A DNA stretch of 64,000 bases from Chitinophagales bacterium (GTDB lineage: Bacteria > Bacteroidota > Bacteroidia > Chitinophagales > JADIYW01), in assembly GCA_046329805.1 (NCBI GenBank), contig JAXLUA010000001.1, positions 86,542 to 150,541 on the forward strand. The letters are read 5' to 3'. This document shows positions 9,958 to 64,000 of this stretch, piece after piece. The stretch's first letter is position 1; every line of letters begins with the position of its first letter. A program made the position numbers and the translations under genes. The notes under the pieces are model-generated. The model searched no databases. It saw nothing but the letters and a program-made list of their open reading frames with translations, and was not told the DNA's origin.

Positions 9958-9989
9958 TCGTATAATTGTAAATATTAAACAACATTATT

Positions 9990-10364: not shown

Positions 10365-10492
10365 ATTCTCTTTTTTTCATAAAGCTTCTTAGTTGTAGCA
10401 ACCTCATTTTGGGGTTGCTATTACATTTACACATTAAACAACATTAACTTAAATTGTAGGTTTAACAGAAACTCCTTATTTTTGTGTGACTT

Positions 10493-17293: not shown

Positions 17294-20200
17294 TTAATTA
17301 ATAATCATAAAGTAATTGACTTCATGGATTTGTTTTCCTGTTTCCGGTTCTTCATAATCAATACTATACCAATATGTTCCGGATGGCAATATTCCACCTT
17401 TAAATGTACCTTGCCAATCATTTTTATAATTGTCATCTTCGTAAACAATCAATCCCCAGCGATGCCATACCAATAACTTCACTCCTGCAGTTCTGCTTAA
17501 ACATGGAAAAAGTAAATTATCATTAAAGCCATCATTGTTTGGGGTAATAACTTGTGGAAATACACATTCACAGTTTACATGTAAACATACCATTGCTGTA
17601 TCACAGCCGTCTTCGCCATCACATACTTCATAATACAAAGTATCTCTGCCACAGAAATTTTTGTTTGGTGTATATAAAATTAAATTCTGCCCTTCACCTC
17701 CAACTATCGAAGCAATACCATATTTTGGTTGGGTGGTAATAGCAGAAATATACAATCTATCATGATCCGGATCTACATCATTTTCCAACACATTAATAGT
17801 AGTTTCTGAATTATGTTGGATTTCTTGTACACAATCATCGCTTGCTATCGGAGGAACGCCTGTTATTATAATCACTATTGTAGTAGTATTACATTGTCTC
17901 GTTGAAGGATCACATGCACTTATGCAAATTGTATCATTTCCCGTGTATGTTCCCGCAGTATATTCCAAGCAATGTGTTTGAGCATTTAACGTCCATGTAC
18001 CATGAGGTAATGTCCCATGTGTTGAATCGCCATAACACGATGCTACAATAACCCCATCACCTGGAGGCAATGAAATAGTGCATATTGTATCAGATGTCAA
18101 AACAGGTATAGTATCATAAATAAGTGTATCAATTCCTATAGGTATCGTGTCGCAAATTATTACTCTCAAATTTAATGTAACTATACTATCACAAACATCC
18201 GAAGCAGGAAGAACAATTTCTTCATTTGAAACACTTGTTGTAAATACATGCTCTCCGATTACAATTCTTTCACCATCGCATATTACAGTATCCATTGTAG
18301 TTCGTTTTGCTAAGTGTTTAGTTAAATACAAAGTAACAATACTATCGCACCCGTTTTGTGCTTCTAAAGTAATTACATAAACCCCTGTTTCACTATAACT
18401 ACCCTCTCCAATTTTGATAGAATTACCCTCGCAAACATCTGCCATAATAGAACTTGTTTTCGTAGGGCTTTTTAGAATTGTTTGTTGATGCTTAGTAATG
18501 TTTTGGCAAGCATCTGAAGCGACCCAAACACGTGTATATGTAATATATGGTGCATTGAGCACACTATCTATAACTTCTACAAATGACACTTCCGCAGTAC
18601 CACAATTATCTATTGCTGTAAGTATAGCAGGGGCAGAAATATTTCCGCATACAATACTATCTTGTGGCAGGTCGCCGACAAACGTCGGTTTTATCGTATC
18701 GTTTACGGTGATGATTTGACGGCTCGTGCTTTCATTACCGCAGGCATCTTTGGCTTTCCACGTTCTGATTATTTTATAGTTGTTCGGACATTGCTGTGCT
18801 TCAATGGCATCCGTTACACTCAATTGAACTTCGCCATTACAGTTGTCTGTGGCATGCACATTGGCTGTACCCAATTCCGGTACTTCGCTTGCACAACTTA
18901 CTATTATATCTTGAGGAGTGCCGATGATCTCCGGCTTGGTCGTGTCTTGTACCGTTATCGTTTGACGGTGTATCGTTTCATTTCCACAGGTATCTCTGGC
19001 GATCCATGTTCTGATGATGCCGCCATTGCCGCTGCATCCGCCCTCCGTGCTGCGCTCGAAGTACGTTACCGTTGCCATGCCGCAATTATCCGTCGCCGTT
19101 AAAGTCGGTATCGGTGGTATTGCTGCACAGTTAACCGTTACGTCTTGCGGTAGGTCGCCGACAAACGTCGGTTTTATCGTATCGTTTACAGTAATGATCT
19201 GACGGCTCGTGCTTTCATTACCACAGGCATCTTTGGCTTTCCACGTTCTGATTATTTTATAGTTGTTCGGACATTGCTGTGCTTCAATGGCATCCGTTAC
19301 ACTCAATTGAACTTCGCCATTACAGTTGTCTGTGGCATGCACATTGGCTGTACCCAATTCCGGTACTTCGCTTGCACAACTTACTATTATATCTTGAGGA
19401 GTGCCGATGATCTCCGGCTTGGTCGTGTCTTGTACCGTTATCGTTTGACGGTGTATCGTTTCATTTCCACAGGTATCTCTGGCGATCCATGTTCTGATGA
19501 TGCCGCCATTGCCGCTGCATCCGCCCTCCGTGCTGCGCTCGAAGTACGTTACCGTTGCCATGCCGCAATTATCCGTCGCCGTTAAAGTCGGTATCGGTGG
19601 TATTGCTGCACAGTTAACCGTTACGTCTTGCGGTAGGTCGCCGACAAACGTCGGTTTTATCGTATCGTTTACAGTAATGATCTGACGGCTCGTGCTTTCA
19701 TTACCACAGGCATCTTTGGCTTTCCACGTTCTGATTATTTTATAGTTGTTCGGACATTGCTGTGCTTCAATGGCATCCGTTACACTCAATTGAACTTCGC
19801 CATTACAGTTGTCTGTGGCATGCACATTGGCTGTACCCAATTCCGGTACTTCGCTTGCACAACTTACTATTATATCTTGAGGAGTGCCGATGATCTCCGG
19901 CTTGGTCGTGTCTTGTACCGTTATCGTTTGACGGTGTATCGTTTCATTTCCACAGGTATCTCTGGCGATCCATGTTCTGATGATGCCGCCATTGCCGCTG
20001 CATCCGCCCTCCGTGCTGCGCTCGAAGTACGTTACCGTTGCCATGCCGCAATTATCCGTCGCCGTTAAAGTCGGTATCGGTGGTATTGCTGCACAGTTAA
20101 CCGTTACGTCTTGCGGTAGGTCGCCGACAAACGTCGGTTTTATCGTATCGTTTACAGTAATGATCTGACGGCTCGTGCTTTCATTACCACAGGCATCTTT

Positions 20201-23200
20201 GGCTTTCCACGTTCTGATTATTTTATAGTTGTTCGGACATTGCTGTGCTTCAATGGCATCCGTTACACTCAATTGAACTTCGCCATTACAGTTGTCTGTG
20301 GCATGCACATTGGCTGTACCCAATTCCGGTACTTCGCTTGCACAACTTACTATTATATCTTGAGGAGTGCCGATGATCTCCGGCTTGGTCGTGTCTTGTA
20401 CCGTTATCGTTTGACGGTGTATCGTTTCATTTCCACAGGTATCTCTGGCGATCCATGTTCTGATGATGCCGCCATTGCCGCTGCATCCGCCCTCCGTGCT
20501 GCGCTCGAAGTACGTTACCGTTGCCATGCCGCAATTATCCGTCGCCGTTAAAGTCGGTATCGGTGGTATTGCTGCACAGTTAACCGTTACGTCTTGCGGT
20601 AGGTCGCCGACAAACGTCGGTTTTATCGTATCGTTTACAGTAATGATCTGACGGCTCGTGCTTTCATTACCACAGGCATCTTTGGCTTTCCACGTTCTGA
20701 TTATTTTATAGTTGTTCGGACATTGCTGTGCTTCAATGGCATCCGTTACACTCAATTGAACTTCGCCATTACAGTTGTCTGTGGCATGCACATTGGCTGT
20801 ACCCAATTCCGGTACTTCGCTTGCACAACTTACTATTATATCTTGAGGAGTGCCGATGATCTCCGGCTTGGTCGTGTCTTGTACCGTTATCGTTTGACGG
20901 TGTATCGTTTCATTTCCACAGGTATCTCTGGCGATCCATGTTCTGATGATGCCGCCATTGCCGCTGCATCCGCCCTCCGTGCTGCGCTCGAAGTACGTTA
21001 CCGTTGCCATGCCGCAATTATCCGTCGCCGTTAAAGTCGGTATCGGTGGTATTGCTGCACAGTTAACCGTTACGTCTTGTGGTAGGTCGCCGACAAACGT
21101 CGGTTTTATCGTATCGTTTACAGTAATGATCTGACGGCTCGTGCTTTCATTACCGCAGGCATCTTTGGCTTTCCACGTTCTGATTATTTTATAGTTGTTC
21201 GGACATTGCTGTGCTTCAATGGCATCCGTTACACTCAATTGAACTTCGCCATTACAGTTGTCTGTGGCATGCACATTGGCTGTACCCAATTCCGGTACTT
21301 CGCTTGCACAACTTACTATTATATCTTGAGGAGTGCCGATGATCTCCGGCTTGGTCGTGTCTTGTACCGTTATCGTTTGACGGTGTATCGTTTCATTTCC
21401 ACAGGTATCTCTGGCGATCCATGTTCTGATGATGCCGCCATTGCCGCTGCATCCGCCCTCCGTGCTGCGCTCGAAGTACGTTACCGTTGCCATGCCGCAA
21501 TTATCCGTCGCCGTTAAAGTCGGTATCGGTGGTATTGCTGCACAGTTAACCGTTACGTCTTGTGGTAGGTCGCCGACAAACGTCGGTTTTATCGTATCGT
21601 TTACAGTAATGATCTGACGGCTCGTGCTTTCATTACCGCAGGCATCTTTGGCTTTCCACGTTCTGATTATTTTATAGTTGTTCGGACATTGCTGTGCTTC
21701 AATGGCATCCGTTACACTCAATTGAACTTCGCCATTACAGTTGTCTGTGGCATGCACATTGGCTGTACCCAATTCCGGTACTTCGCTTGCACAACTTACT
21801 ATTATATCTTGAGGAGTGCCGATGATCTCCGGCTTGGTCGTGTCTTGTACCGTTATCGTTTGACGGTGTATCGTTTCATTTCCACAGGTATCTCTGGCGA
21901 TCCATGTTCTGATGATGCCGCCATTGCCGCTGCATCCGCCCTCCGTGCTGCGCTCGAAGTACGTTACCGTTGCCATGCCGCAATTATCCGTCGCCGTTAA
22001 AGTCGGTATCGGTGGTATTGCTGCACAGTTAACCGTTACGTCTTGCGGTAGGTCGCCGACAAACGTCGGTTTTATCGTATCGTTTACAGTAATGATCTGA
22101 CGGCTCGTGCTTTCATTACCACAGGCATCTTTGGCTTTCCACGTTCTGATTATTTTATAGTTGTTCGGACATTGCTGTGCTTCAATGGCATCCGTTACAC
22201 TCAATTGAACTTCGCCATTACAGTTGTCTGTGGCATGCACATTGGCTGTACCCAATTCCGGTACTTCGCTTGCACAACTTACTATTATATCTTGAGGAGT
22301 GCCGATGATCTCCGGCTTGGTCGTGTCTTGTACCGTTATCGTTTGACGGTAAATAGGGCTTGTTCTACCACATTTATCTGAAAATGTCCAAGTGTTTGTA
22401 TAAGTCCCTTTTATGGGACAAGCTGCTGAAGTAGCAACAAAAGCACCTGAAATTTTTACTACAGCAAGAGCGCACTTATTAATAGCCGGCACTAATGCTT
22501 GAGCTGCAGCTAATGATTGTGCATCGTTACAATTAATTATTCTATCTAAAGCTCCAACTTCGGTAGCCCATGCTACAGGTGGCGGAGTATTTATTTGTAC
22601 TGTATTGGGTTTTCCATCTCCTAAGCCGCAACTTGTTAATGCTTTTGAACTATAGGTAGTTTGAATGTTTTTATTTTTTAAGCCTGAATAAGTTGCTATT
22701 AATTGAGCATCGGTACTATTTACACATGCTGATTCTAAAAAATAGCATTGTGGTTTCACTACCACTTTATAAGAAATATTAATTGCAGTAGCTGCAACAT
22801 CTACTAATCCATCTGCAATTGTAAATTTCAGTTCGCGAGTTATAGTATTATATGAATAAGTTACTCCAGAAGGCAAAGGAGAAATAGGTTGAACTAAATC
22901 TACTTCGGGCGGCAACGTTCTTGAAATAGTAACATTTCGGGCATCGTCATTTCCGACATCTTTGACTGTAAATGTGTAAGAAATTGTATCTCCAGGGTTT
23001 ACTATACTTGGAGAAGCAACTTGTACCAATGGATCTAAATTAGGCGCCCATATATCTGTAGAAAAACCAACCGCATACAATCCATATAATTCTTGGTCAG
23101 AAGTTAATCTAAAAACCGCTGAAGTTTGGTTGTTGGTAATAATACTATTGGAAGTATTATTCAAAGTAAAATAACCGGCATCGAATCCGAGCGTATTTGT

Positions 23201-24169
23201 ACTTGCAGGGTTTCTGTCAATAAAATCACTTCCTTCAACGGTAATTCTACTATTAAAAAAATTATTAGCCGGACGATTGGCAGTTGATAAATCGACAAAA
23301 CTATTAGCTACATTTTTTATTTGAAATCTGTCCCCTGTTAAATCTCTATCTCCTTCCAATGCACCAAACAAAATTCTTGTGCTTATATTTCCTGTTGGTG
23401 GCGTTTGAAACCCGGACATAGTAATATCATAATTATTTTGAGAAGAAGATACGTTAGCATATCCATCAAAAATAGTTATATATTTAGACGGCAAAGTGGT
23501 GCTGCCTGCTGCTGTACTTTCATATACAAAAACTATTTGCCATCCGCCTGAAGTACCTACATTACCAGAAGGATGGGCAGGGTTTAAACTCCCTTTTTTA
23601 GCTCTTACATTTGCCACTTGATATTTACCATAAGGGCTTGTTAATGCTTGAACTTGTGCAGTAATATCTTTAACACAAATATAAGGGTCGTTTTGAAAAT
23701 GATTAGTTTGGCATCTACCACAGAAAATCACATTGTCGGCTGTGATAGTAGTATATGTTGAACTTCCCGGCAACATTAACTTAGCTGTATTATAACTCCA
23801 ACTGGGTTCGTTACTAATAGTTGATTCTTCAAAATCAGCGGCAGCCCAATACAAGTATGCTTTTTTTATAGATACACAAGTAGTATTTGGCACTGGTTTC
23901 GTAAAATTCGCACTACTAGAATTAAATGTTGTTGCATCATTATCAATATCAACAAACACAGTAACACGATTATGATTTCCTTCATTACCTGTATAATTAC
24001 CGGTAGCAGTTGTTGATAAAACATTATTCCCAATTGATACAAAATCACCATTAAGGCGTGCAGAAAATCGAGGAGTGAAAGGTGTCATTAACTGTGTGAA
24101 ACCTGCGTTATGTATTAATAACAATATAGCTGTGCATATTATTATTTTTATTACTCTACTATATCTCAT
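17294..24169 (-). CDS. giant T9SS cargo adhesin with HYR-like Ig repeats and gliding-motility-associated (type B) C-terminal domain
   Basis: 2291-aa ORF with a signal peptide. It has eight copies of the module ...CPNNYKIIRTWKAKDACGNESTSRQIITVND.... The C-terminus (VITPNNDGFNDNL...GTYWYSIDY) matches the CHU_C/type-B T9SS CTD pattern. Confidence 0.9.
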   Translation of the reverse strand: MRYSRVIKIIICTAILLLIHNAGFTQLMTPFTPRFSARLNGDFVSIGNNVLSTTATGNYTGNEGNHNRVTVFVDIDNDATTFNSSSANFTKPVPNTTCVSIKKAYLYWAAADFEESTISNEPSWSYNTAKLMLPGSSTYTTITADNVIFCGRCQTNHFQNDPYICVKDITAQVQALTSPYGKYQVANVRAKKGSLNPAHPSGNVGTSGGWQIVFVYESTAAGSTTLPSKYITIFDGYANVSSSQNNYDITMSGFQTPPTGNISTRILFGALEGDRDLTGDRFQIKNVANSFVDLSTANRPANNFFNSRITVEGSDFIDRNPASTNTLGFDAGYFTLNNTSNSIITNNQTSAVFRLTSDQELYGLYAVGFSTDIWAPNLDPLVQVASPSIVNPGDTISYTFTVKDVGNDDARNVTISRTLPPEVDLVQPISPLPSGVTYSYNTITRELKFTIADGLVDVAATAINISYKVVVKPQCYFLESACVNSTDAQLIATYSGLKNKNIQTTYSSKALTSCGLGDGKPNTVQINTPPPVAWATEVGALDRIINCNDAQSLAAAQALVPAINKCALAVVKISGAFVATSAACPIKGTYTNTWTFSDKCGRTSPIYRQTITVQDTTKPEIIGTPQDIIVSCASEVPELGTANVHATDNCNGEVQLSVTDAIEAQQCPNNYKIIRTWKAKDACGNESTSRQIITVNDTIKPTFVGDLPQDVTVNCAAIPPIPTLTATDNCGMATVTYFERSTEGGCSGNGGIIRTWIARDTCGNETIHRQTITVQDTTKPEIIGTPQDIIVSCASEVPELGTANVHATDNCNGEVQLSVTDAIEAQQCPNNYKIIRTWKAKDACGNESTSRQIITVNDTIKPTFVGDLPQDVTVNCAAIPPIPTLTATDNCGMATVTYFERSTEGGCSGNGGIIRTWIARDTCGNETIHRQTITVQDTTKPEIIGTPQDIIVSCASEVPELGTANVHATDNCNGEVQLSVTDAIEAQQCPNNYKIIRTWKAKDACGNESTSRQIITVNDTIKPTFVGDLPQDVTVNCAAIPPIPTLTATDNCGMATVTYFERSTEGGCSGNGGIIRTWIARDTCGNETIHRQTITVQDTTKPEIIGTPQDIIVSCASEVPELGTANVHATDNCNGEVQLSVTDAIEAQQCPNNYKIIRTWKAKDACGNESTSRQIITVNDTIKPTFVGDLPQDVTVNCAAIPPIPTLTATDNCGMATVTYFERSTEGGCSGNGGIIRTWIARDTCGNETIHRQTITVQDTTKPEIIGTPQDIIVSCASEVPELGTANVHATDNCNGEVQLSVTDAIEAQQCPNNYKIIRTWKAKDACGNESTSRQIITVNDTIKPTFVGDLPQDVTVNCAAIPPIPTLTATDNCGMATVTYFERSTEGGCSGNGGIIRTWIARDTCGNETIHRQTITVQDTTKPEIIGTPQDIIVSCASEVPELGTANVHATDNCNGEVQLSVTDAIEAQQCPNNYKIIRTWKAKDACGNESTSRQIITVNDTIKPTFVGDLPQDVTVNCAAIPPIPTLTATDNCGMATVTYFERSTEGGCSGNGGIIRTWIARDTCGNETIHRQTITVQDTTKPEIIGTPQDIIVSCASEVPELGTANVHATDNCNGEVQLSVTDAIEAQQCPNNYKIIRTWKAKDACGNESTSRQIITVNDTIKPTFVGDLPQDVTVNCAAIPPIPTLTATDNCGMATVTYFERSTEGGCSGNGGIIRTWIARDTCGNETIHRQTITVQDTTKPEIIGTPQDIIVSCASEVPELGTANVHATDNCNGEVQLSVTDAIEAQQCPNNYKIIRTWKAKDACGNESTSRQIITVNDTIKPTFVGDLPQDSIVCGNISAPAILTAIDNCGTAEVSFVEVIDSVLNAPYITYTRVWVASDACQNITKHQQTILKSPTKTSSIMADVCEGNSIKIGEGSYSETGVYVITLEAQNGCDSIVTLYLTKHLAKRTTMDTVICDGERIVIGEHVFTTSVSNEEIVLPASDVCDSIVTLNLRVIICDTIPIGIDTLIYDTIPVLTSDTICTISLPPGDGVIVASCYGDSTHGTLPHGTWTLNAQTHCLEYTAGTYTGNDTICISACDPSTRQCNTTTIVIIITGVPPIASDDCVQEIQHNSETTINVLENDVDPDHDRLYISAITTQPKYGIASIVGGEGQNLILYTPNKNFCGRDTLYYEVCDGEDGCDTAMVCLHVNCECVFPQVITPNNDGFNDNLLFPCLSRTAGVKLLVWHRWGLIVYEDDNYKNDWQGTFKGGILPSGTYWYSIDYEEPETGKQIHEVNYFMIIN
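18661..22350 (-). repeat. ~7.6 tandem copies of a near-identical 483-bp (161-aa) coding repeat
   Basis: Antisense shadow ORFs recur at an exact 483-bp period (19274, 19757, ... 22172). Direct comparison of the sequence lines shows only a few SNPs between copies. Confidence 0.95.
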
Positions 24170-51335: not shown

Positions 51336-51485
51336 TGAAGTCAGATAGTGTATTTATAGACTTGCTTTTTGCTGTACTAAAAACAATAGGCAGAACGTTC
51401 TTATTAACGCTTTACCTCGCAGGTCGCATCATTCAATTCATCATCATACATCTAAATCTATGGATCGAAACATTACTCAAATAAT
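51336..51485 (+). CDS. possible small membrane protein (49 aa), not in the ORF track
   Basis: ATG at 51336. Translation MKSDSVFIDLLFAVLKTIGRTFLLTLYLAGRIIQFIIIHLNLWIETLLK is mostly hydrophobic. It overlaps the T4CP start by 26 nt in another frame. Confidence 0.3.
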
Positions 51486-52923
51486 GGAAGAAATAGGCGA
51501 ACAGGTATCGCATTTCATCCGCAACTATGTAATTCCAATCATACAGGAATTCTTTTACACCGTATCAAGAGGAATAGACGGTATAGTAGAAGTATTGTCG
51601 TCAAAGAATCATTCATATAAAGCCGAGTTTATAACCTATGACGAAATACTAATGAAGTCTAATAGAGGTTTCTGTTTAGATGGCAGAAACTGCCTTGCTC
51701 GTTCAGAACCAAATGTATTGGTATGCGCTCCGTCAGGTGCAGGAAAGTCAACAGTCATTAGTATTCCATCACTTTTGAAAATTGATGGTTCTGTGATTTG
51801 CAATGATCCATCTATGGAACAATACCATAAGACGGCAGGGTATTTAATTTCAAAAGGATATAATGTTGAAGTGCTTAATTTCGCACAAATAACCAACACC
51901 TTTTACAACCCCATTTCGCAAATACATAATACAGCCGATGCACAAAAGATAGCAGGGATGTTAGTGAGAAATGTGTTACAGAACCCGGGCGATCCGTTTT
52001 GGAATTTAAGTGCGACAAACTTAATCGCACTATCCATACGCATACTGTTACGACATGAGAAACAGTATAGAAACTTCGCTAATGTTCGCCATCTCATACA
52101 ACTCCTTACCTTTGAGCCAAAATCAGTAGATGCGTTAGTCGCACAAACCAATGCCCAGGATATTATTGCAGACTACAAAAGTTTCATCGCACAAGACACC
52201 AAACTTCGCACTTCTATCATAGCAACGGCCATGAGTGCTTTACAAATCTTTGCCGATCCTATTGTCGCCAAAGTAACAAGCAAAGATACCTTAGATTTAG
52301 AATCTATACGAAAGCGAAAAACAGTCATATTCATTCACTCATCAACAAGTGACATGAAATATTACTCCACACTTATAAGCATCTTCTTTGAGCAGACTAC
52401 TAAAGTGATTATGTCTAAACTGCCTGAAAAAGAAGATAACTATGTATTCTTTATTTTAGATGAGTTGAGCAGTATGTATCTGCCATCGCTTGAAATAGTC
52501 ATAGCCAATATTCGTAAGTATAAAGGTTCACTACTTTGTATTCTGCAATCGTTCCAACAGTTAATCAATATATACGGCAGAGAACAAGCAAATGCTATTA
52601 GAATGAACTGTTTTGCTAAGGTGTATATGGCAGGGTTAGATCATACCACCGCCTCTGAATTAAGCCAACAGTTGGGTAAATATGAGTGGATTGATGAAGA
52701 AACAGGCAAAAAGCACATCAGGGAATTAGCAACACCGGATGAAGTAAGAATGTTGCCTCGTGATAAAGCAATACTTATTTGTGGTAATTACAATCCTATG
52801 AAACTTACACTTACACCCTATTACAACAATCCATTTCTTAAACTGCGAACAGAAATACCGATACCATATACCAATACTGCCATAGATGAAACGCCTGTTG
52901 AACTCATAACCAATGATGAATAA
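51460..52923 (+). CDS. type IV secretion coupling protein (TraG/TraD/VirD4 family ATPase)
   Basis: Walker A VCAPSGAGKST. Walker B VFFILDELSSM. 487 aa. It is adjacent to relaxase genes. No N-terminal TM segment is present in this ORF. Confidence 0.8.
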   Translation: MDRNITQIMEEIGEQVSHFIRNYVIPIIQEFFYTVSRGIDGIVEVLSSKNHSYKAEFITYDEILMKSNRGFCLDGRNCLARSEPNVLVCAPSGAGKSTVISIPSLLKIDGSVICNDPSMEQYHKTAGYLISKGYNVEVLNFAQITNTFYNPISQIHNTADAQKIAGMLVRNVLQNPGDPFWNLSATNLIALSIRILLRHEKQYRNFANVRHLIQLLTFEPKSVDALVAQTNAQDIIADYKSFIAQDTKLRTSIIATAMSALQIFADPIVAKVTSKDTLDLESIRKRKTVIFIHSSTSDMKYYSTLISIFFEQTTKVIMSKLPEKEDNYVFFILDELSSMYLPSLEIVIANIRKYKGSLLCILQSFQQLINIYGREQANAIRMNCFAKVYMAGLDHTTASELSQQLGKYEWIDEETGKKHIRELATPDEVRMLPRDKAILICGNYNPMKLTLTPYYNNPFLKLRTEIPIPYTNTAIDETPVELITNDE

Positions 52924-52926
52924 CAT

Positions 52927-53499
52927 ATGCGGAAAATAAGACGAAATACGAAGTTGTGGCTTTATTTGTATCAATCAGGCGTTCTTGCATCTAATAATGA
53001 AACCTTGATTAAACAAAAGGTACATGAGTACTGGAAACTCTATGATAAGGAACGGAAGAAGCGTAAACGTGCGATTAAAACAGAATTTACGATATCCTTT
53101 ACCAAAGAAGAAGTAAAAGCGTTAAAATACGTTGCGTTGAATGTAGGATTAACAATACCTGACTACATCAAACAGTTGGTATATACCAATATAAAAACAC
53201 ATCCATTCACACCATACGCACAAACGATTAAGCATATTGAACAACTACTTATCCATTACAAGAACAAGATAAACGACATTGCCAAGAAAGAGGTAAAGAA
53301 CTTCTTAGGTATGAGTAAAAATTATGATCTACTTACTGCTGCTATTACAGAGATACAGACAACTATTGCTCAAACGCTTACACAAACACCAACGTTGCAA
53401 GAAACCATAAAAACAGCCTTAATGAATAACCCACTGTTTATACAAACACTCCGCCAACTTATGCAATCGTATAATGATACTCAAAAGCCTAACTCGTAA
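52927..53499 (+). CDS. relaxosome accessory protein (MobC/ribbon-helix-helix-like)
   Basis: 190 aa. The segment KRKRAIKTEFTISFTKEEVKALKYVALNVGLTIPDYIKQLV fits the RHH pattern of mobilisation accessory proteins. It overlaps the relaxase start. Confidence 0.5.
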   Translation: MRKIRRNTKLWLYLYQSGVLASNNETLIKQKVHEYWKLYDKERKKRKRAIKTEFTISFTKEEVKALKYVALNVGLTIPDYIKQLVYTNIKTHPFTPYAQTIKHIEQLLIHYKNKINDIAKKEVKNFLGMSKNYDLLTAAITEIQTTIAQTLTQTPTLQETIKTALMNNPLFIQTLRQLMQSYNDTQKPNS

Positions 53500-54373
53500 G
53501 ACAGCATCATTTAAACAGCTACTCGAATATATGGTGCATGATAAAGACCGCTACAAAGATGAACGTGGCGAATCTTTTGTAGTGCAACATAATGTAAAAG
53601 GCAAGACGATACCATCATGGGTAAAACAGTTTGAACAGAATGAAACCAACAGATTATATCAACGCTCAAATTCTGTAAAGGTATGTCACGATATTTTGAG
53701 TTGGAGTAATAAAGACACAAGTAATATGAGTTTGGAAAAGATGCAGGATATGGCAGAGAAGTATATTGAACTTCGCAATGAAAATGCCTTGTGGATTGCT
53801 GTACCACATATAGATAAAGACCACTTTCATGTTCATTTTGCTATGAGTGGAGTTGAAATTGAAACAGGGAAGTCATCACGAGTATCACGAGAACAGTTCA
53901 AAGAGATTAAGAAAGAATTACAGCAGTATCAAATTGAAAAATATCCTGAACTTACTCACTCCATTGTTGACCATGAAAAGAGCAAGAAGAAAGAACCTAT
54001 ATCAGAAAAAGAATACCAATTAACGAAACGTACTAAACAACCGAGCGAAAGGGAACGGACTAAAGAAGTACTTACTAAACTATATAGACAATCCAATTCT
54101 AAAGAAGATTTTTATAAACGCATACAAGATAATGGATTAAAGATGTACGAACGTGGTGGTAAGAACTATGGCATTGAGGGTGACAGGAAAATGCGATTTT
54201 CTACATTAGGTTTTGATGATAAAAAGATAGATACATTAGATGCTACTTTGGAATTTGAGAAATTACGGAATGATACGGAAGAAAAAGAGAAAGATAAATA
54301 CGATGATGATGGAAATGATACTGATAATAAAGATCACAGTAATGACACTGAATTAGATATGGATAAGAATTAA
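53474..54373 (+). CDS. relaxase/mobilisation nuclease (MobA/VirD2-type)
   Basis: The N-terminus MILKSLTRKTASFKQLLEYMVHDKDR is typical of the relaxase family. The histidine triad motif is VPHIDKDHFHVHFAMS. The tail is acidic and low-complexity. Confidence 0.8.
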   Translation: MILKSLTRKTASFKQLLEYMVHDKDRYKDERGESFVVQHNVKGKTIPSWVKQFEQNETNRLYQRSNSVKVCHDILSWSNKDTSNMSLEKMQDMAEKYIELRNENALWIAVPHIDKDHFHVHFAMSGVEIETGKSSRVSREQFKEIKKELQQYQIEKYPELTHSIVDHEKSKKKEPISEKEYQLTKRTKQPSERERTKEVLTKLYRQSNSKEDFYKRIQDNGLKMYERGGKNYGIEGDRKMRFSTLGFDDKKIDTLDATLEFEKLRNDTEEKEKDKYDDDGNDTDNKDHSNDTELDMDKN

Positions 54374-54659: not shown

Positions 54660-57600
54660 ATGCGGAAACAAACTTTAATAAAACTAATACTCACACTCGT
54701 GATCTTGTTGAATAAAATACATAGTTATGCACAAAGTACAAGTTATCAGATGTTATATAATGATGGCACTTTTACAAAGAGTATAAATACCGGTTTGCAG
54801 GTCGGTGTTGTTGATGGACAGCAAGGTACTACACAGACGGGAGCTGCAACATATACCATTCCAATAAAAGTAACTCCGGGAATAAATGGAATGGAACCTA
54901 AATTAGCAATTACATACAGTTCACAAAATGGAAATGGTTTATTAGGTGTAGGGTGGAACTTAAGTGGTCTAAGTTCAATAACATTAGATAATAGGAATAT
55001 ATATTATGATGGAAAGACTGCACCAATAAATATTGCACCAACTGTGTCGAGTGATGGGACAGCTTTTTCATTGGATGGCATGAGATTAATTGGGAGAAGT
55101 GGTACATATGGTTGGGCTGGATCAACTTATTCCACAGAATTAGAGAATTATTCTTTAATTACTGCTCAAGGTGTTGCTAATGCAAGTTGTGGTTGTCCTT
55201 TAAATTTTAATATTAAAACAAAAGATGGATTAAGTATGGATTATGGTGATAATGGAAGCAATCCAGATGCTCTCATACTTTCATATGGTAATTCATACCC
55301 AATAATGTGGCGTTTAAAAAGAACAACAGATAACAATGGAAATTACATAGATTATAAGTATTCTATTACGACTGACGGTGAATCTAAAATTGATGAGATT
55401 AATTATACAGGAAACTCTACAAATAATGTGGCAACTCCATTTGCCAAAGTAAAATTTATCTATTCTGAACGTTCAGATCCAAATATAATGTATGTAGTTG
55501 GTTCCAATTCAACGAATGCAACGACATTAAAGAGTAAATGGCTGTTAGATAAAATAATAATAACTTCCGATGCACAAACGGTAAAAACATACAAGTTTAA
55601 TTATGCCTTTGATGGTATTTATTCTGTATTACAAGAAGTTAAAGAAATTGGGTCTGATAATACAGAATTAAACTCTACCATTCTTAGGTACGGAAATCCA
55701 AAAGAATTGGATGCAGCAAACTCTAATGTTGTTTCAACAACAACTAATAATATTAGTACTACTAATTCGGATAATTTCACAGGTGATTTTGACGGAGATG
55801 GGTACACTGATATTTTAACTGCTTATTACACATCTCCTACATTGCGACAATATACAAGTATCAAAATATTTAGAAAGATTCCCAATACAAACAATTTTCA
55901 AGATATATATACTTATAATTTACCATCAACGATTAATATTTCTGGTACTAATTACCCGGCTTTTAGATATATAAACGTAGCTGATTATGATGGGGATGGG
56001 AAAAGTGATATTATGTTTGATAACTATTATTCTGCAAGTATTCCCAATTCATCTGCTTACGTTTTTATTTCTGGGAAGTATTCAAATACGGCTTTAATGA
56101 GCACGTGTACAAATAGTAGTTATGGTTTTAGTGTTAATGAATACAATAACTTAACAAACCTTGGTGTTTTTGGAAGCTGTTCAGCTAGTATTTATGGGGC
56201 TACTGAATCTGCATCAACGACAGTGCGAAGCCAGTTTATTAATGGAGATTTTGACGGAGATGGAGCAACCGATATTATTACAACATTATTCAATGTTGGT
56301 GTTAATGCCCCTTCTCAAGGAAACAGAACATTTATTACAAGAATTAATACTAATGAATTTTATTCTCCAATTAAATTAAATTCGACAGGTAGCTATTCCG
56401 ATCTTGGTGACCTTTGCGCTACTTATAAGCCTGTTGCAGTGGCTGATTTTGATGGGGACGGTAAAGACGAAATATTATTAGAAAATGGAATGATTCTCTT
56501 TTTTAGAAAAAATAGTAGTAATCAATGGGAATGCGGTACCATTATGTCGCCTATTAGTTCTACAGACAAGGTTTATTGTGGTGATTTTAATGGAGATGGA
56601 AAGACTGATATTTTAAGAGGTAGCAAATACGCTTGGGGTTTTAATGATTGGAAAGTATTTTATAGTAAAGGATATGGTTTTGATTCCTTATCAATGTCTA
56701 TGCAAAGTATGGCTTTTGACCAGACGTTAGATTATAAGAATATGAAGATTATTATTGGCGATTTTAATGGAGATGGAAAAGCTGATATAATACAACAGGT
56801 AATTCCAATGATACAGGTTTCACAAACCTATTCCGCACCAGCAAATTATTCCAATTTACATATTTGCTATAGTAATGGAGTTAATTTTACTTACAGAGAT
56901 ATTACTATAAATAACAGTAATACCAATCTATACATACCCAAGATATTTGGTGATTTTGATGGTGATGGAGCTACGGATATTATATGTAGATCGGATATAT
57001 CGCATACTATAAATAGTAAACCATATATGTTCGAGAGTTTTGGAAATCAACAAAAAGAGAGATATTTACGGAAAATTATTGATGGATTTAATCGAAAAAC
57101 AGAATTTACATATAGCCCACTTACAATAGGGTTGCCATTTTACAACAATGGAAATGGACCAACATCTTATTATCTTACTACAAACTCATTGAAAATACCA
57201 ATATATGCAGTTTCAAATGTCATAACTCCTGATGGTATCGGCGGGAATATTACCACTTCATATACATATACAGATGTAGTTATGGGTAAATATCGGAAAG
57301 GATTTTTTGGATTCTCTAAGATTAATTCTCTAAACTCATTGACTAACATCAATACAGAAATTCTTTATGAAAATAATGTAAATGTTACTAATAATACAAT
57401 TACTTCTCTAATCCCAGTTAGTATTAAAGCAACGCTAAATGGCAATGTCATCTCACAAAATACATATTCATATGCATATACATTTTTAGGCAATAAAAGA
57501 TTTAAGACTGAACTTTCAAATAGCACAAGTATTGATAACGTGAATGGAAAGACTTTGAATTCTAACTATGTTTACGACGGAAATGGAAATGTTATAAATC

Positions 57601-60600
57601 AAACAATTAATAACACAGGTATTGAAGTATTTACAATAAATAGACCAGTGGCTGATTTCGTAATAAGCGGGACAGGAACTGTGCCCTCATTGCCAAAAAC
57701 AATAATTGAGTCAACAACAAGAGGTAGTACAACTTTTAGTAAGACGACCAAATTAAACTATGATTCAAAAGGAAGGATAATTAGCAAAATTGATTTCGAT
57801 GGTACAACAAACAAATTAACCACTACTTTTGGATATGATAATTTTGGAAATATTATAACCACTTCATCATCGGGATTTACTACTGGTGTTGGTATTGCAA
57901 CAATTACTAAAAATACTCCATTTAGTTTTGATGGCAGATACTTGCAATCTTCTGAGATACAAAATGTAAAAGGTGTTGAAAATATAGATGCATATGATAA
58001 TAAATGGCAGACGCCCACCTCTATAACCAATGCTTCAACTTATAGGCATACTCAAATAACCTATGATGCTTTTGGAAGAACTGTTAATTTAAAGCCAACT
58101 ATGCCTGGTGGACCGACAACTTATGATATTAATACCAAATATGATTGGAGTACATTGCCGAATAGTATCTATATGGTAACCCAAACCCCTTATGGTATGT
58201 CTGAAACAAGGCAATACTATGATATGTTTAATCGTTTAGTTAGAGAAGAAAAAACAGTAAATGGTAAGACAAAGTTTACCCAAAATACTTATGACGCAAA
58301 AGGGGATATTATAAATATTAAAACTAATGATGCAGATGGGGGTACAATAGAAACAATAAATACCTATGATTTATATCATAGGCTACTCACTAGTTCACCT
58401 ACTATTGGGGCTGCATCTGCTAATACTTATACTGTTTCCTCTAATGGATATACTGTTTCTAGTTCTACTACAGGATATCCATTAAAAATTAGTAAAATAG
58501 ATGCAACAGGAAAAACAACAGAAGTTACCGAAACTGCTGGAACCAATTCGGTTACAAATATATATTCTTATCATGCTAATGGCAGATTATTAAAAGTAAC
58601 TCAGTCAGGAAAAGATTTAGTTGTTTGTGAATACGATGCTAATGGTAATCAAACTAAATTAACCGATATTGATGCCGGTTCAACTTTGTATGAGTATGAT
58701 GCTTTTAGGAATATTACAAAGCAGACCGATGGTAAAAATAATATAACTGAATCCACCTATGACCTTTCTGCAAGACCATCAACAAAGTCTGTTACGGATG
58801 GTGCTAACCCAGGAAATTATCAGACGGTCGATTTGTATAGTTATTATCCTGCAAATTCTAGTGGAGAAGGGTTAGTAAAACAAATTCAACATTTTAATTA
58901 TGCAGAATCAGGTGCTAATATTATTCAGAATTATGAGTATGATGAATATGATAGATTAAAAAAAGAGACTAAAAATTTTGAAGGAACTAATTTTGTCACT
59001 CAATATGAATACGGCGATTATGGTAGGTTAAAAAGCGTAACATATCCAAGTGCTACAGGTATTAACCCTGTTAAAATTTCATATACAACAACTGCTGATG
59101 GTTATGTAACTAATGTGAGTGCTTTAAATGCTGGAGTTTCAAAAACAATTTTAAATACTTCAACAGCTAATAACTATAATGCATTCGACCAGTTAAAATC
59201 CTATTCATTAGGCAATGGATTAAGTAGTCAAACAGATTACAATAAATTGGGTATGCCTACAAGGTATCTGACAAACTCTGTATTTCTTTTTATACCATAC
59301 AGATTACAAGATTTGCAGATGCCAATTTGGGATTTAAATAATGGTAATTTGATGAAAAGAATTGATGCATCAAACAATAACAGACCAACTACAACTGAAG
59401 TTTTTACGTATGATGGTTTTAATAGATTAACTAGTTCTACAGTCGGGACAACAACACTTGGAGTTGGATATGATGCTATTGGCAATATAACAAATAAGTT
59501 TGACGCAGGGACAGAGTATCTTTACAATTCGCCTAAGATACATGCAGTAGAAAACATAAAAAGCAAAATTTATGATTATCCGTTGCCAATTTATCCTCAA
59601 TATCCAAGCAATAACGCCCCTAATGAACGCAGTGATATAAGTGGTGATAAACAGCAAATCATTTATAACGGAATTAACCAGCCATCTTTAATAATAGAAG
59701 GTGGAGGAGTTGGAAGTAATCTTATAAAAAAATTAAAGTATATCTATGATATTGATGGAAATAGAATTAAGAGTATATACACAGAAGAGAATAGTTTAGG
59801 TGTTATTGATGCAAGTAAAACTATAAATCGTTATTATTTGGGTAACTATGAATTTGAAAAGGATGCTAATAACAACATTACTCGCCAACTTAATTATATC
59901 AGTACGCCTGTTGGCTTAACATCAATTTTAGATAAAGAATCTGGACAGGCTGATGCTTATTTCTTTACATATACAGACCACTTAGGTAGCGTTGTTACAG
60001 TTACGGATCAAAATGCCGTACCAGTAGTTTATCAGAGTTTTGATGCATGGGGAAGACCTAGAAGTACATACGACTGGAGTTACAATAATATATCTGCACC
60101 ACCAGCTGCTTTAAACGTAGGCTTCACCGGGCACGAAATGTTATCTAAGTTTGACTTGATAAATATGAACGGTAGATTATATGATCCAAAAGTCGGACGT
60201 ATGTTAGCATCTGATAATTATGTACATGATGCCTTTAATACACAGCATTTTAATCGATATAGTTATGTTTGGAATAATCCTTTAAAATATATAGATATCA
60301 ATGGAGAAGATGGAGATGGTTTTTCTTTTTATATTCCATCTAGTCCAATAAATTGGGACTTCTCAAATATTAACCTTACAATTCCAAGCCCTCAACTCCC
60401 AACAATATATAATCTTGATTATTACAACACGCCACTATTTCCTATTTCTACATTTGGAGGATATAGCTCAAATGCTTGGGGTAATACCGATAATTTTGTT
60501 TGGACTACAAATCAAGCCATAGCTACAGCCAATTCAGTAGTTGGAGATGCTAATGCTGTCAATGCAAGTTTAATGACATACATGAATGGATATACAACAA

Positions 60601-61139
60601 ATGGAGCTGCTGCAACAACTGAATTAGCGACAACAATAAGTTGGGGAGAAATAGGAACAAGTATAGGTGAAGGATTAGCAGCATTGGGTACATTTGCAAC
60701 TTCTGTAACATGGGGGGCTATAGGTATATTAACTAGTGGTGGTAGTTCTGAGCGAAGAGTAGATGATTATGCACCAGCACAGCCAATTACCATTGCGCCA
60801 CCAATTAGTACGACAGGTAATCCTCAATTATATGAACAATATGCATTAGTTGCTACAAGAACAGGTTTATATCCTACAGCATCCTGGGGTGTTCCATTTA
60901 GGGCAGATTTGGCACCTAAAAAGCTAATGTTTGCCGGGGAAGTGTGGAAATATGGAACTACAAAAAATGGAGTTGGCAGATATACAAATTCATTTTATAC
61001 TACCACGGGAATGGGTTTAGATTATGTGACACAATTTTCAGGCACCTTATTACAAGTAAGAGCAGAAGAAGCAACTAAGATTATAAATTATTATTTTTGG
61101 TATGGCGATTTGCCACCGGGAAATAAATGCTTACATTAA
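54660..61139 (+). CDS. SpvB/FG-GAP/RHS-repeat polymorphic toxin (TcB-TcC-like fusion) with variable C-terminal domain
   Basis: Signal peptide. SpvB-like N-terminus ([47 protein letters not shown]). Seven FG-GAP/VCBS motifs (GDFDGDGxTDI) lie at ~55780-56990. YD repeats ([30 protein letters not shown]...) are present. The RHS core ends at [16 protein letters not shown]...[19 protein letters not shown] (60171-60308). Confidence 0.9.
   Translation: [2159 protein letters not shown]
60309..61136 (+). other. C-terminal variable (toxin) region of the RHS protein
   Basis: ~276 aa after the RHS core boundary. It includes a Gly/Ala/Thr-rich hydrophobic stretch ([36 protein letters not shown]) and a terminal ~120-aa globular part with [20 protein letters not shown]. 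Confidence 0.6.
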
Positions 61140-61149
61140 AAGAAATATT

Positions 61150-61647
61150 ATGCTAATAAAAGGTTCATCAGAGACGGGGTATCCATTTGAAGAGTTACGT
61201 GAATATTATTTATATCATTTAGTTTATGACAAAAATGCAATTGATAAGATTACACGAGACTTTATTCCAGATGATTATGAAGAGTTTACAAAAGGTGCTA
61301 TGAGTAAGTCTATTCAAGGGAAAGATTATGGGAAAGATATTGATGAAATATCTGTATTGTTAATATGTAGGCAGGGAGCAAGTGAATTTAAGGTGCGTAA
61401 ACGCCTTTGTATAACAAATAGTAGAATCAATACTCTTGGCATAGATTGCATTTTAAATGTTGCTAAAGCAAATTTGCTCAAAGAAGATGATCTTAAAATA
61501 TATCTCTTGCAAGAGCTAAAAAAGACATTTACATCTATACAGACGTACAAGAAAAAATTAAAGAATTTTAATTTTGATGCTTTTGAAACAGATATTCAAT
61601 CGTTCTTAGATAATGAAATTGAGAGGATTGAAAAGAATAAAAAATAG
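61150..61647 (+). CDS. candidate cognate immunity protein
   Basis: 165-aa ORF that starts 11 nt after the RHS stop, on the same strand. It has no signal peptide. The call rests on position only. Confidence 0.5.
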   Translation: MLIKGSSETGYPFEELREYYLYHLVYDKNAIDKITRDFIPDDYEEFTKGAMSKSIQGKDYGKDIDEISVLLICRQGASEFKVRKRLCITNSRINTLGIDCILNVAKANLLKEDDLKIYLLQELKKTFTSIQTYKKKLKNFNFDAFETDIQSFLDNEIERIEKNKK

Positions 61648-64000
61648 CAGATACAGTTTGAAAATTAGTTCCAAAATATTGCCTTTTAAGATTTATACAG
61701 TATTTGCATTGCTGTTTATTTATAAAAGTAATACAGCTCAAGATTTAGCCGTAAAATTTTATGCAGATTCTCCAAATTCATTTTATATCTATAGCTCCAC
61801 TTTTGATACAATTAGCAATTGTTATTACATGTCTGTTTCAGGTAAAACCTCAAACGACTTTAAAACAGGATTAATAAAACTAGATAAATGTGGAAATATT
61901 ATTTGGTTTAAAAAGTATAAAAATTTGAAAGGTGTAGGTTCTTATTCCTGTTTAGTTATTAAACCCAACATTATTGCAGTAACTACTGTTTATGAAAGTC
62001 TCCAGCCCAATGATAAAGGATCAATACTTTTCATTGATTCAAGTGGTAACATCATTACACAATTAACTACAAAAAGTGCCCACAAACAATTACCCAACCC
62101 ACTAAAGGGGGCTACGATTAATTACATATATTCTGATAATTCAATATATGGGGTGGATAATTCGGGTAATGTAATTTGGTCTAAATTATTGCAAGGCTTA
62201 AATTTAAATGCCTTAAATGCTTTTATATATAGTACCTCAATCAAGAGTAACGGAAATTTATTAATATTGCTGGTTAATGATTCATTACATTATGTTTTAG
62301 AAATAGATAATAGTGGTAGTTTAATAAAGCAATGTAAAGCCAAAACTGCATATAGTCCATATTATTGCTTTTCAGCATATAGTGATGGTATTTATTTGCA
62401 ATATAATGGAAATGGTCTTATTGAAAATTATGGAAAAAGTGTATTGAAATTGGATGATAACTTAAACCTTGTATGGGCGAAAGAATTTTATGCTACAAAT
62501 GGTGTTGATACAATCCCCCCCATATATACCAATAGCTTTAATATACCATTTAGTTTAGATTTTAATGATGGGGTATTTTATGCTGAATTTATGAGCAAAA
62601 TAAATGGACGCTTTGAATATAGTATTGTGGGAATGGATAATAATGACGGGCATGTTTTATCTCATAATTACTTTGAAAGAGGGATTGTCTATTATGTATA
62701 TAATAATCTTATGAGAGGCTTTATATTGGAAGATTCAGTAACAAGACTATATAATCCATCCTTATTAACTGGAAAAGAAAGGATTTTTAATAATTGTTAT
62801 ATGAGATCGGCTAATAATGTTTCCGTAAAAAACGCACAGGCAAATGTTATACTAGAAAATAACTTTGTATTATTGAATGATACATCTGGACTTGAGAAAT
62901 ATTCTTCTTACACTATCGAAGATGGCACAGCAGGGGTGTCTTTTTTATGTTCTCATTTAAATTTAGGGAATGATTCAACTGTATGTAGTTTCAAGAACTA
63001 TTTCTTATATATAACAGATTCAGCACAATTTAAAAGAGTACTCTGGAATACTGGAGATACATTGTTTCATTTGCAGATAACCAAACCCGGGAAATACATT
63101 GCAACTGTATTCAATGATTGTGGATTAAAAGTTTCTGATACTGTGAATATATATCAAACATTTCTAACCAAACATGATACAATATTCAGGTTCTGCAAAG
63201 GTGACACTTTGACTTATAATAATAGTAAATATTATACACAGGGTTCTTTTTTTGATACAATCCATTCAATATCTAATTGCGATACTTTGCAAAAAGTAAT
63301 AGTACAGTTATACCCCAATTATTTATCTGCTTCTTTTGATACTTTATGCGAGGGCGATTTATTTAATAATATTCCGATTTATACTGATACCATATTGTCC
63401 CTACATTTAAATACCATTTATGGGTGTGATAGTATTATTAATCGTAAAATAAAGGTTAATAAAAAATCTAATAGCATTCAGAATATTGAGATATGTAGAT
63501 TTTCTTCGTTTAATGGTGTTACAATTAATAAAGATACTCTTATAAAGAAGGTATTTCTTAATAGGGGTAATTGTGATAGTGTTGTAAGTTATATCATAAA
63601 TGTAAAAGATACAGTTCATGTCTTGTTAGATACTAGTATTTGTACAGGTGATATTTTTTTAGGTAAATATTTAAAGAATGATACCACAATACAATTGATA
63701 AATAAAAATGCAAATAATTGTGATAGTATTACTATTTATCATGTTTTGGTAAAAAGATTAAAAGAAGCAATAGTTAATGCATCAGTATGTAGAGGTGTCC
63801 AATATGTTTTACCCAATGGGAAACATGTAAATCAGACAGGAATATATAAAGATACTACTACAAATAATATTGGTTGTGATAGTGTAATAATTACAAATCT
63901 TAGTGTTCAAGATCCAATTCCAGTTATTCAAAGTATTTCAATTTGTGATGGACAAAGTTACATATTGCCCAATGGAGGTAAGGTAAAAACAGCAGGTATT
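61613..64000 (+). CDS. large secreted adhesin-like protein with repeated Cys-containing (N/G)CDS(I/V) modules; 3' end outside the window
   Basis: Hand translation shows an uninterrupted frame from ATG 61613 (MKLRGLKRIKNSRYSLKISSKILPFKIYTVFALLFIYKSNTAQD, signal peptide) to the window end (796 codons). It is absent from the supplied ORF track. Modules such as ...NCDTLQKVIVQLYP, GCDSIINRKIKVN, NCDSVVSYIINVKD and GCDSVIITNLSVQD resemble the C-proximal part of the 17294-24169 adhesin. Confidence 0.75.
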   Translation, partial: MKLRGLKRIKNSRYSLKISSKILPFKIYTVFALLFIYKSNTAQDLAVKFYADSPNSFYIYSSTFDTISNCYYMSVSGKTSNDFKTGLIKLDKCGNIIWFKKYKNLKGVGSYSCLVIKPNIIAVTTVYESLQPNDKGSILFIDSSGNIITQLTTKSAHKQLPNPLKGATINYIYSDNSIYGVDNSGNVIWSKLLQGLNLNALNAFIYSTSIKSNGNLLILLVNDSLHYVLEIDNSGSLIKQCKAKTAYSPYYCFSAYSDGIYLQYNGNGLIENYGKSVLKLDDNLNLVWAKEFYATNGVDTIPPIYTNSFNIPFSLDFNDGVFYAEFMSKINGRFEYSIVGMDNNDGHVLSHNYFERGIVYYVYNNLMRGFILEDSVTRLYNPSLLTGKERIFNNCYMRSANNVSVKNAQANVILENNFVLLNDTSGLEKYSSYTIEDGTAGVSFLCSHLNLGNDSTVCSFKNYFLYITDSAQFKRVLWNTGDTLFHLQITKPGKYIATVFNDCGLKVSDTVNIYQTFLTKHDTIFRFCKGDTLTYNNSKYYTQGSFFDTIHSISNCDTLQKVIVQLYPNYLSASFDTLCEGDLFNNIPIYTDTILSLHLNTIYGCDSIINRKIKVNKKSNSIQNIEICRFSSFNGVTINKDTLIKKVFLNRGNCDSVVSYIINVKDTVHVLLDTSICTGDIFLGKYLKNDTTIQLINKNANNCDSITIYHVLVKRLKEAIVNASVCRGVQYVLPNGKHVNQTGIYKDTTTNNIGCDSVIITNLSVQDPIPVIQSISICDGQSYILPNGGKVKTAGI

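Follow-up and report, generated by a model that had tools for sequence, protein, structure and literature searches.

Background

What toxin does the large RHS gene of a Chitinophagales genome carry at its C-terminal end, and does the short gene behind it encode the protein that protects the producer? The gene lies in a stretch of 64,000 nucleotides (nt) from a Chitinophagales bacterium of the Bacteroidota (NCBI GenBank assembly GCA_046329805.1, contig JAXLUA010000001.1, positions 86,542 to 150,541, forward strand), which is referred to here as the window and whose first letter is position 1. An earlier note on this DNA, made from its letters alone, had described the tail of the RHS protein as an unassigned toxin domain with a Gly-zipper-like segment and a possible GIY-YIG/URI-like core, and the open reading frame (ORF) downstream as a candidate immunity gene that matched nothing recognised. 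Judged from profile comparisons with its relatives, the tail domain is a divergent member of the Tox-URI2 family that has been unlabelled until now, not a new kind of toxin, and the downstream protein is, on similar grounds, a divergent Imm44. Probably the locus is a conventional RHS polymorphic toxin-immunity module, combining Tox-URI2 with Imm44, of a member of the Chitinophagales (Bacteroidota).

The features of the locus, with the sources of each call, are as follows.

54660..61139, + strand: RHS polymorphic toxin gene, 2159 amino acids (aa) (ORF listing, Pfam, NCBIfam)
60042..60305, + strand: RHS repeat-associated core, aa 1795-1882; TIGR03696, 49.5 bits against a cutoff of 32.5 (NCBIfam)
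60309..60818, + strand: linker or pre-toxin region, aa 1884-2053, 170 aa (composition, isoelectric point (pI))
60636..60743, + strand: Gly/Ala/Thr-rich hydrophobic stretch, aa 1993-2028 (Kyte-Doolittle hydropathy)
60819..61136, + strand: predicted Tox-URI2-family toxin domain, divergent clade, aa 2054-2159 (profile search, hhalign, BLASTP)
61150..61647, + strand: predicted immunity gene, divergent Imm44 (PF15571), 165 aa (homolog labels, hhalign)

Family assignment of the toxin

TIGR03696 ends at aa 1882 of the RHS protein and the motif that closes the core at aa 1883, leaving a tail of 276 aa (aa 1884-2159, window 60309-61136), the length given in the earlier note. The peptides quoted there were located at aa 1993 (ISWGEIG...), 2089 (LMFAGEVWKYG) and 2134 (RAEEATKIINYY). 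Alignment of four relatives revealed that the conserved part of the tail is limited to its last ~105 aa (aa 2054-2159); the terminal domain proposed earlier is real, but smaller than the ~120 aa suggested for it.

The 276-aa tail had no match in Pfam, NCBIfam or the sequences of the PDB. A word-indexed search of 5.8 billion proteins with the full tail returned only four relatives, a result that suggested a rare domain and that was overturned by exhaustive profile search. A profile of the four domains, run against 1.84 billion cluster representatives, retrieved 753 of them at E<=1e-3, a signal well above chance; 401 remained when the limit was set at E<=1e-10 and 41 when it was set at E<=1e-30. 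A second, word-indexed profile search returned 1130 proteins. The domain sits at the exact C-terminus of the protein in 134 of 140 full-domain matches. It is carried by proteins of about 100 up to 3288 aa, a spread typical of polymorphic-toxin tips, and among the relatives it follows RHS boundaries with linkers of varying length.

The family became apparent through these relatives. In domain-only Pfam scans, Tox-URI2 (PF15653) was the top match of the homologs P0001 and P0004, at 14.2 and 15.7 bits and thus below the gathering cutoff of 20 bits, and a Tox-URI2 match at E<=0.1 was obtained for 29 of 97 family members. Six proteins (P0184, P0192, P0210, P0225, P0235 and P0238) exceed the Pfam cutoff at 37-63 bits, and these same six are retrieved by the clade profile at E 1e-24 to 1e-31. 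Alignment of the window clade with the six by hhalign gave a probability of 99.7% (E 4.3e-26, 102 columns), and BLASTP of the window domain against P0184 gave 37% identity (E 6e-18). The motifs of the window domain, including the terminal PPGNKC.H, are present in all six (e.g., DPFGLKELYALLASKDGWYPVMEYGKKNPVGEMFLKKGDLWKIGETKNPARRYTQKWL...LEKMKLKGYKAWKGFLPPGNKACH). Profile comparison of the tail with toxin families, which the earlier note had recommended, thus leads to Tox-URI2 by way of relatives above the cutoff, and the guess of a URI-like toxin holds at the level of the family. The description of the toxin as unassigned and of its neighbor as matching nothing does not survive, as both proteins enter existing Pfam families once profiles are used.

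Tox-URI2 was defined by the signature 'Y, KxG, [EQ]', by association with RHS proteins and by the partners Imm9, Imm12, Imm39 and Imm44, and it was placed in the URI/GIY-YIG fold (Zhang, de Souza, Anantharaman, Iyer & Aravind, 2012, Biol Direct 7:18; PMC3482391, Table 2). In the window protein the signature corresponds to Y2061/Y2071, K2097-Y-G2099 and E2137; the domain is C-terminal in an RHS protein, and a listed immunity type, Imm44, is encoded next to it. The Pfam model spans ~G2069 to just before LPPGNK and excludes the invariant Y2061 and N2155. Conservation within the domain was computed over 211 family sequences, with the following result.

Y2061: 100%
Y2071: 95%
D/E2094: 99%
W2096: 99%
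K2097: 100%
G2099: 100%
T2101: 94%
R2107: 100%
Y2108: 100%
E2137: 92%, with Gln in the remaining 8%
L2151-P-P-G: 96%, 99%, 82% and 99%
N2155: 100%
K2156: 92%

Because the window protein retains every residue of this list, from Y2061 through K2156, its toxin looks functional. The same alignment allowed the residues that had been matched to a GIY-YIG pattern in the earlier note to be re-examined. KYGTT, the Arg and the Glu do fall at family-conserved positions, but the proposed 'GIY' (LMF) and Asn (INYY) do not. There is no conserved Tyr at LMF, where position 2089 is W/Y/F and position 2090 is L in 91% of sequences, and the conservation of N2143 of INYY reaches only 51%. The invariant Y2061, Y2071 and N2155 had no place in that mapping.

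Identity of the downstream protein

The 165-aa ORF starts 10 nt past the toxin stop, in the immunity position that had been pointed out for it, and its family is Imm44. An alternative 181-aa reading from 61102 overlaps the 3' end of the toxin gene, and the extension is unconserved in most homologs. The protein is deposited as NCBI MFN8266489.1, a 'hypothetical protein' of the same Chitinophagales metagenome-assembled genome (MAG) as the toxin.

All eight homologs with precomputed Pfam annotation, namely the identical P0005 and seven other full-length proteins, carry the label PF15571 (Imm44). By contrast, hmmscan of the 165-aa protein with the local Pfam library gave no Imm44 match, and NCBIfam likewise gave nothing usable. 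Version PF15571.11 is used in the local library and PF15571.13 in the precomputed table, and we attribute the discrepancy to this difference between model versions. In six of six metagenomic loci, with the toxin homologs P0003 (two loci), P0004, P0170, P0208 and P0014, an Imm44-labelled gene of 129-164 aa lies 2-15 nt past the toxin stop. When the window immunity clade was compared by hhalign with four downstream proteins of distant toxin loci, the probability was 98% (E 1.6e-13). The downstream proteins of loci L030 and L034 exceed the local Pfam cutoff for Imm44 (31.7 and 42.9 bits), and hhalign joined the window clade to them at 96.7% (E 3.2e-10). A hidden Markov model built from the immunity proteins of the loci detected an Imm44-like ORF downstream of the toxin in 29 of 59 genome loci; the remaining 30 presumably use other immunity families, as listed by Zhang et al.

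Neither a signal peptide nor a transmembrane segment was found in the immunity protein, whose maximum Kyte-Doolittle 19-residue mean is 0.92, in keeping with a cytoplasmic site of toxin action. Its AlphaFold model is an alpha+beta structure (predicted local distance difference test (pLDDT) 89.3), for which Foldseek found no match in the PDB; a PDB sequence search with the protein was also without a match.

The C-terminal ~45 residues of the immunity protein (window 61495-61646; KIYLLQELKKTFTSIQTYKKKLKNF.FDAFE.DIQ.FLD.EI.RIE) are invariant among homologs that are 47-62% identical overall. This part is also the only region of the gene with detectable DNA similarity (80%) to the homologs in another Chitinophagales MAG (L010:4507-4658 and 10346-10497; L011:1164-1315). 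A recombination arm used in cassette exchange, or a helical hairpin under strong constraint, could account for it.

Does the domain adopt a URI fold?

The AlphaFold model of the toxin domain, generated from a 60-sequence alignment, reached a pLDDT of 95.9 and a predicted template modelling (TM) score, pTM, of 0.87. In domain numbering, strands run over residues 5-12, 16-19, 34-37, 42-48 and 67-75, short helices over 51-54 and 57-62, and a long helix over 77-95, after which comes the LPPGNK tail. The order is therefore one or more beta-hairpins, a helix with the Arg, a strand, a long helix with the Glu and a tail bearing the Asn. An Arg on the first helix, a Glu on a later helix and an Asn after it constitute the order of GIY-YIG enzymes. 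R2107, E2137 and N2155 are conserved, follow this order and lie on the expected secondary-structure elements, while the equivalence of the 'GIY' strand is ambiguous. GIY-YIG, homing or intron endonucleases make up ~16 of the top 40 neighbors of the model in BFVD; their query-normalised TM scores are 0.42-0.51 and their E values non-significant, and the best of them aligns at a root-mean-square deviation of 3.4 Å across 100 columns. Given the model and its neighbors, a URI/GIY-YIG fold is plausible for the window domain. Structure search supports the fold proposed in the earlier note only weakly, with no match in the PDB and with BFVD neighbors that are enriched in GIY-YIG enzymes but non-significant.

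Several results weigh against a Tox-URI2 nuclease of this fold, delivered by a standard RHS system. The window tail and the isolated domain do not match Tox-URI2 in Pfam. Foldseek of the toxin model against the PDB gave no match (best E 0.44, TM <= 0.35, no GIY-YIG protein in the top 50) and against BFVD nothing significant (all E >= 0.14). No sequence link to GIY-YIG was found in Pfam (97 members, E<=0.1), PHROGs (60 members) or PDB sequences. The position of the 'YIG' Tyr is Tyr in only 52% of the family, and 8% of members have Gln in place of the putative metal-binding Glu. For the nuclease activity of Tox-URI2 the searchable literature offers predictions only, and no assay was found. Lastly, no TcA, PAAR, VgrG or type VI secretion system genes were present among the large window ORFs scanned.

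In a rival reading, the protein would be a true member of Tox-URI2, but the family would not be a GIY-YIG/URI nuclease at all; it would have a fold or chemistry of its own (e.g., that of an RNase, or of an enzyme modifying nucleotides or some other target), and the URI label of 2012 would be a misassignment. A model as confident as the one obtained here has no significant neighbor in the PDB or BFVD, profiles fail to tie the family to GIY-YIG, the 'YIG' Tyr is unconserved and the Glu replaceable, no experimental assay is on record in the searchable literature, and Zhang et al. (PMC3482391) themselves term the clade 'particularly divergent'. On the other side, the order and secondary-structure placement of Arg, Glu and Asn agree with GIY-YIG, the BFVD neighbors best by TM score (up to 0.51) are strongly enriched in GIY-YIG endonucleases, and the domain is basic, with a pI of 9.0. 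We consider a separate fold unlikely on balance. If it were nevertheless true, the catalytic set would comprise Tyr, Lys-x-Gly, Arg-Tyr, Glu/Gln and the Pro-Gly-Asn-Lys tail, and the window protein would be an intact example of it. We would give little weight to two wider proposals, one that Tox-URI2 is a distinct small toxin fold, the other that the Gly/Ala-rich segments preceding it are a built-in module for entry into the membrane of the target cell.

The region preceding the toxin

The linker between the RHS core and the predicted Tox-URI2 domain is rich in T/G/A/S/N, with 0 Lys, 2 Arg and a pI of 4.05, and its conservation is limited to the nearest relative, P0001, and to the near-identical locus L005. 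The Gly/Ala/Thr-rich hydrophobic stretch that the earlier note had noticed within it is real. Its Kyte-Doolittle 19-residue mean peaks at 1.56 at aa 2006-2024, a maximum for the entire protein that is equalled by the signal peptide and that lies just below the 1.6 usually taken as the threshold for a transmembrane helix. The analogous stretch of P0001 has a mean of 1.41. A DPxG[LWFM] boundary followed by a linker of 40 aa or more was recognised in 39 relatives, of which 10 have a hydrophobic segment of at least 1.6 and 18 one of at least 1.4; these segments are typically Gly/Ala-rich and mostly lie <= ~50 residues upstream of the toxin domain. Members above the Pfam cutoff can adjoin DPxGL directly, without a linker. 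The hydrophobic segment is thus recurrent but dispensable, in that it recurs in relatives while some members have no linker at all. That it may have a role in membrane entry is a reasonable idea.

We also weighed whether the stretch is itself the toxic part, that is, a pore-forming or depolarising glycine zipper like the RHS tail of Tse5, with the C-terminal domain merely accessory. It is the most hydrophobic 19-residue window of the protein, and comparable or stronger segments recur upstream of the domain in relatives. Yet it is a single segment, below 1.6, with one strict GxxxG, so that the term 'Gly-zipper' was an overstatement. Moreover, the linker is unconserved beyond one relative, whereas the C-terminal domain occurs in >750 clusters and is found directly after DPxGL where there is no linker. 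The immunity protein, for its part, is a soluble one whose co-variation is with the C-terminal domain rather than with the linker. A pore-forming zipper was rejected on these grounds as very improbable, and the linker itself is unlikely to form pores.

The carrier and its surroundings

The RHS protein is identical, by exact sequence look-up, to NCBI MFN8266488.1, an 'FG-GAP-like repeat-containing protein' encoded on a 661-kb contig of a Chitinophagales MAG. From the N- to the C-terminus it consists of a signal-peptide-like N-terminus, SpvB, FG-GAP repeats, TcdB_toxin_midN, RHS/YD repeats, the RHS core and the toxin tail. The Pfam matches are SpvB at aa 58-107, FG-GAP, TcdB_toxin_midN at aa 740-896 and RHS_repeat (E 1.4e-21). 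The residues of the N-terminus, MRKQTLIKLILTLVILLNKIHSYAQ, suggest a Sec signal peptide, with hydropathy in support. At aa 1872-1883 the core terminates with NNPLKYIDINGE, which corresponds to the PxxxxDPxGL motif of self-cleavage and here takes the variant form NPLKYIDINGE. From what is established for RHS/TcC proteins, we infer that self-cleavage takes place after E1883. The features of an RHS polymorphic toxin are all present: RHS repeats, a core with a PxxxxDPxGL-like end, a variable C-terminal toxin and an immunity gene.

Upstream of the RHS gene, window 51460-52923 encodes a type IV secretion system coupling protein (TraG/VirD4 type) and window 53474-54373, directly upstream, a MobA/VirD2 relaxase; a 190-aa ORF without a family match also lies in 51460-54373. 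With the coupling protein and relaxase immediately upstream, the toxin locus abuts a mobilisable element. The linker has a G+C content of 0.38 and the toxin domain one of 0.36, compared with 0.32 for the RHS body and 0.29 for the immunity gene; these differences are compatible with an exchange of cassettes or just with amino-acid composition. That the toxin tail or the immunity gene is a decayed, non-functional remnant retained by linkage, as orphan toxin stubs beside Imm44 genes in a related MAG (L010) and the adjoining mobile-element genes might suggest, is very improbable, since the 6.5-kb toxin ORF is intact, every family-invariant residue is kept and the immunity ORF has its full length, with homologs aligning to it from one end to the other.

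Downstream of the immunity gene, 10 nt past its stop, begins an open frame of >780 aa (window 61658-64000, + strand) that is still open where the window ends. Its N-terminus is signal-like and its C-terminal part is repetitive and rich in Cys, and Pfam gave no match for it. Orphan toxin or immunity cassettes had been considered for 61650-64000, as no ORFs were listed there; this candidate was discarded, the region being one long open frame. Elsewhere in the window (17294-24169, - strand) lies a gene for a 2290-aa protein with 15 HYR_4C stretches, Big_9/cadherin-like domains and a CHU_C type IX secretion signal. This protein shows that the genome employs the type IX secretion system for large surface proteins.

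A scan of one genome per species yielded 61 toxin-domain loci. These are mostly from Bacteroidota (Saprospiraceae, Lewinellaceae, Haliscomenobacter, Chitinophagales, Flavobacterium and Chryseobacterium), with further loci in Burkholderiales, Acidobacteriota and other groups. The closest protein relatives differ in what precedes the domain: P0004, an RHS fragment, has DPQGL and a helical linker of 200 aa; the 171-aa P0003 has a signal-like N-terminus; and P0001, also a fragment, has a linker that resembles that of the window. P0002 was considered as a toxin-immunity fusion but is an artefact of frameshifts in a long-read contig that abounds in indels and carries essentially the same locus. That locus, L005 (ENA ERZ1714334 contig_1971, 9367-11659), is 97.4% identical to window 60300-62600 over 2319 nt, and its indels split the RHS gene into dozens of small ORFs and create the artificial fusion.

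Two further arrangements were seen among the loci. At L010:3998-4659 (Chitinophagales MAG JAWKKZ010000012.1), a 42-aa toxin-tail stub (...EFEGTWTQAKFLELAKLKQYFFINKALPPGNKMFK) lies directly upstream of an Imm44 gene, within a repeated locus that is flanked by IS110-type transposases and holds two Imm44 copies; it looks like an orphan toxin remnant with poly-immunity. In L041, L043-L046, L048-L050, L054-L057, L060 and L063, from Saprospiraceae, Lewinellaceae and other Bacteroidota MAGs, the match is limited to domain residues 6-91 and the ORF extends 69-78 nt beyond the match to its stop, so the tail may differ. None of these loci has an Imm44-like downstream gene, which suggests a sub-clade with a different immunity family.

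Discussion

The evidence points to a Tox-URI2 toxin and its Imm44 partner, and the sequence of events proposed for them is as follows. The 2159-aa protein would be exported by its Sec-type signal peptide, and SpvB, FG-GAP, TcdB-mid and RHS regions would build a TcB/TcC-like shell of YD repeats. Self-cleavage after the RHS core, around E1883, would free a fragment of ~30 kDa made up of the lysine-free, low-complexity linker, with its one moderately hydrophobic segment, and the basic Tox-URI2 domain of ~105 aa. Its family membership predicts for the toxin the activity of a metal-dependent URI/GIY-YIG-type endonuclease directed at nucleic acid in the cytoplasm of the target cell. R2107, E2137 and N2155 would take the roles of Arg, Glu and Asn, K2097-x-G2099 would stand in place of 'YIG', and the catalytic tyrosine would be supplied by Y2061 or Y2071. 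The producer itself would be protected by the soluble 165-aa Imm44 protein, for which binding and neutralisation of the toxin are predicted. What the analysis shows is the architecture, the membership of both families, the conserved pairing of toxin and immunity gene, and the retention of all family-invariant residues; the self-cleavage, the nuclease chemistry and its substrate, the route of delivery and a membrane role for the hydrophobic segment are inferred.

Biologically, this is an ordinary locus, one further RHS toxin-immunity cassette beside a mobile element. Its value lies in annotation, as two uninformative public annotations become a specific toxin-immunity call. The Tox-URI2 family comprises >1000 proteins, of which the Pfam model recognises a minority; most of the large clade is missed, with 29 of 97 members matched at E<=0.1 against >750 representatives retrieved by the clade profile. 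Surveys of Bacteroidota polymorphic toxins consequently undercount this toxin type. The same annotation gap applies to the Pfam model of Imm44. The URI-fold and DNase assignments of Tox-URI2 appear soft, as the structure search gives no clear confirmation of them.

Comparison with known systems

Canonical GIY-YIG/URI domains (the N-terminal domain of UvrC, I-TevI, Eco29kI and Slx1) resemble the window domain in being small alpha/beta units of ~100 aa with a hairpin, an Arg helix, a Glu helix and a late Asn, and GIY-YIG homing endonucleases are its best, though non-significant, structural neighbors in BFVD. The window domain differs from them in lacking a significant structural or sequence match (PDB, BFVD, Pfam, PHROGs), in having an invariant Lys-x-Gly instead of the 'YIG' Tyr, and in an additional N-terminal hairpin with invariant Tyr residues. 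Its Arg-Glu spacing is shorter than that of I-TevI, at 30 residues versus 48.

The carrier resembles TcB/TcC (ABC toxin) and RHS cocoon proteins in its SpvB, FG-GAP, TcdB_toxin_midN, RHS repeats, core and hypervariable C-terminal toxin. It departs from TcB/TcC in that the B and C components form one chain bearing a putative Sec signal peptide, and in that no TcA-like translocator, PAAR or VgrG turned up among the large ORFs scanned in the 64-kb window.

Like known Imm44 genes, the immunity gene lies directly downstream of a URI-type toxin and encodes an alpha+beta protein, with the shared YG...(I/L)..(I/L)(I/L/M)C and K.R motifs and a C-terminal FD..F..D(L/I) helix. It differs in being ~35 aa longer, with an N-terminal insertion at aa ~25-48, in escaping detection by PF15571.11, and in its last ~50 residues, which are unusually invariant within its own clade.

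Compared with known Tox-URI2 members, the window domain falls under the Pfam cutoff, has a 3-residue insertion in the loop after G2077, and lies 170 linker residues away from the RHS core; the above-cutoff members, by contrast, directly follow DPxGL. With them it has in common a ~100-aa domain at the extreme C-terminus of an RHS protein and the motifs LYAL.A..G.YPV..G......L..G[DE].WK.G.T.....RY...L....G......E..K...Y....G.LPPGNK.

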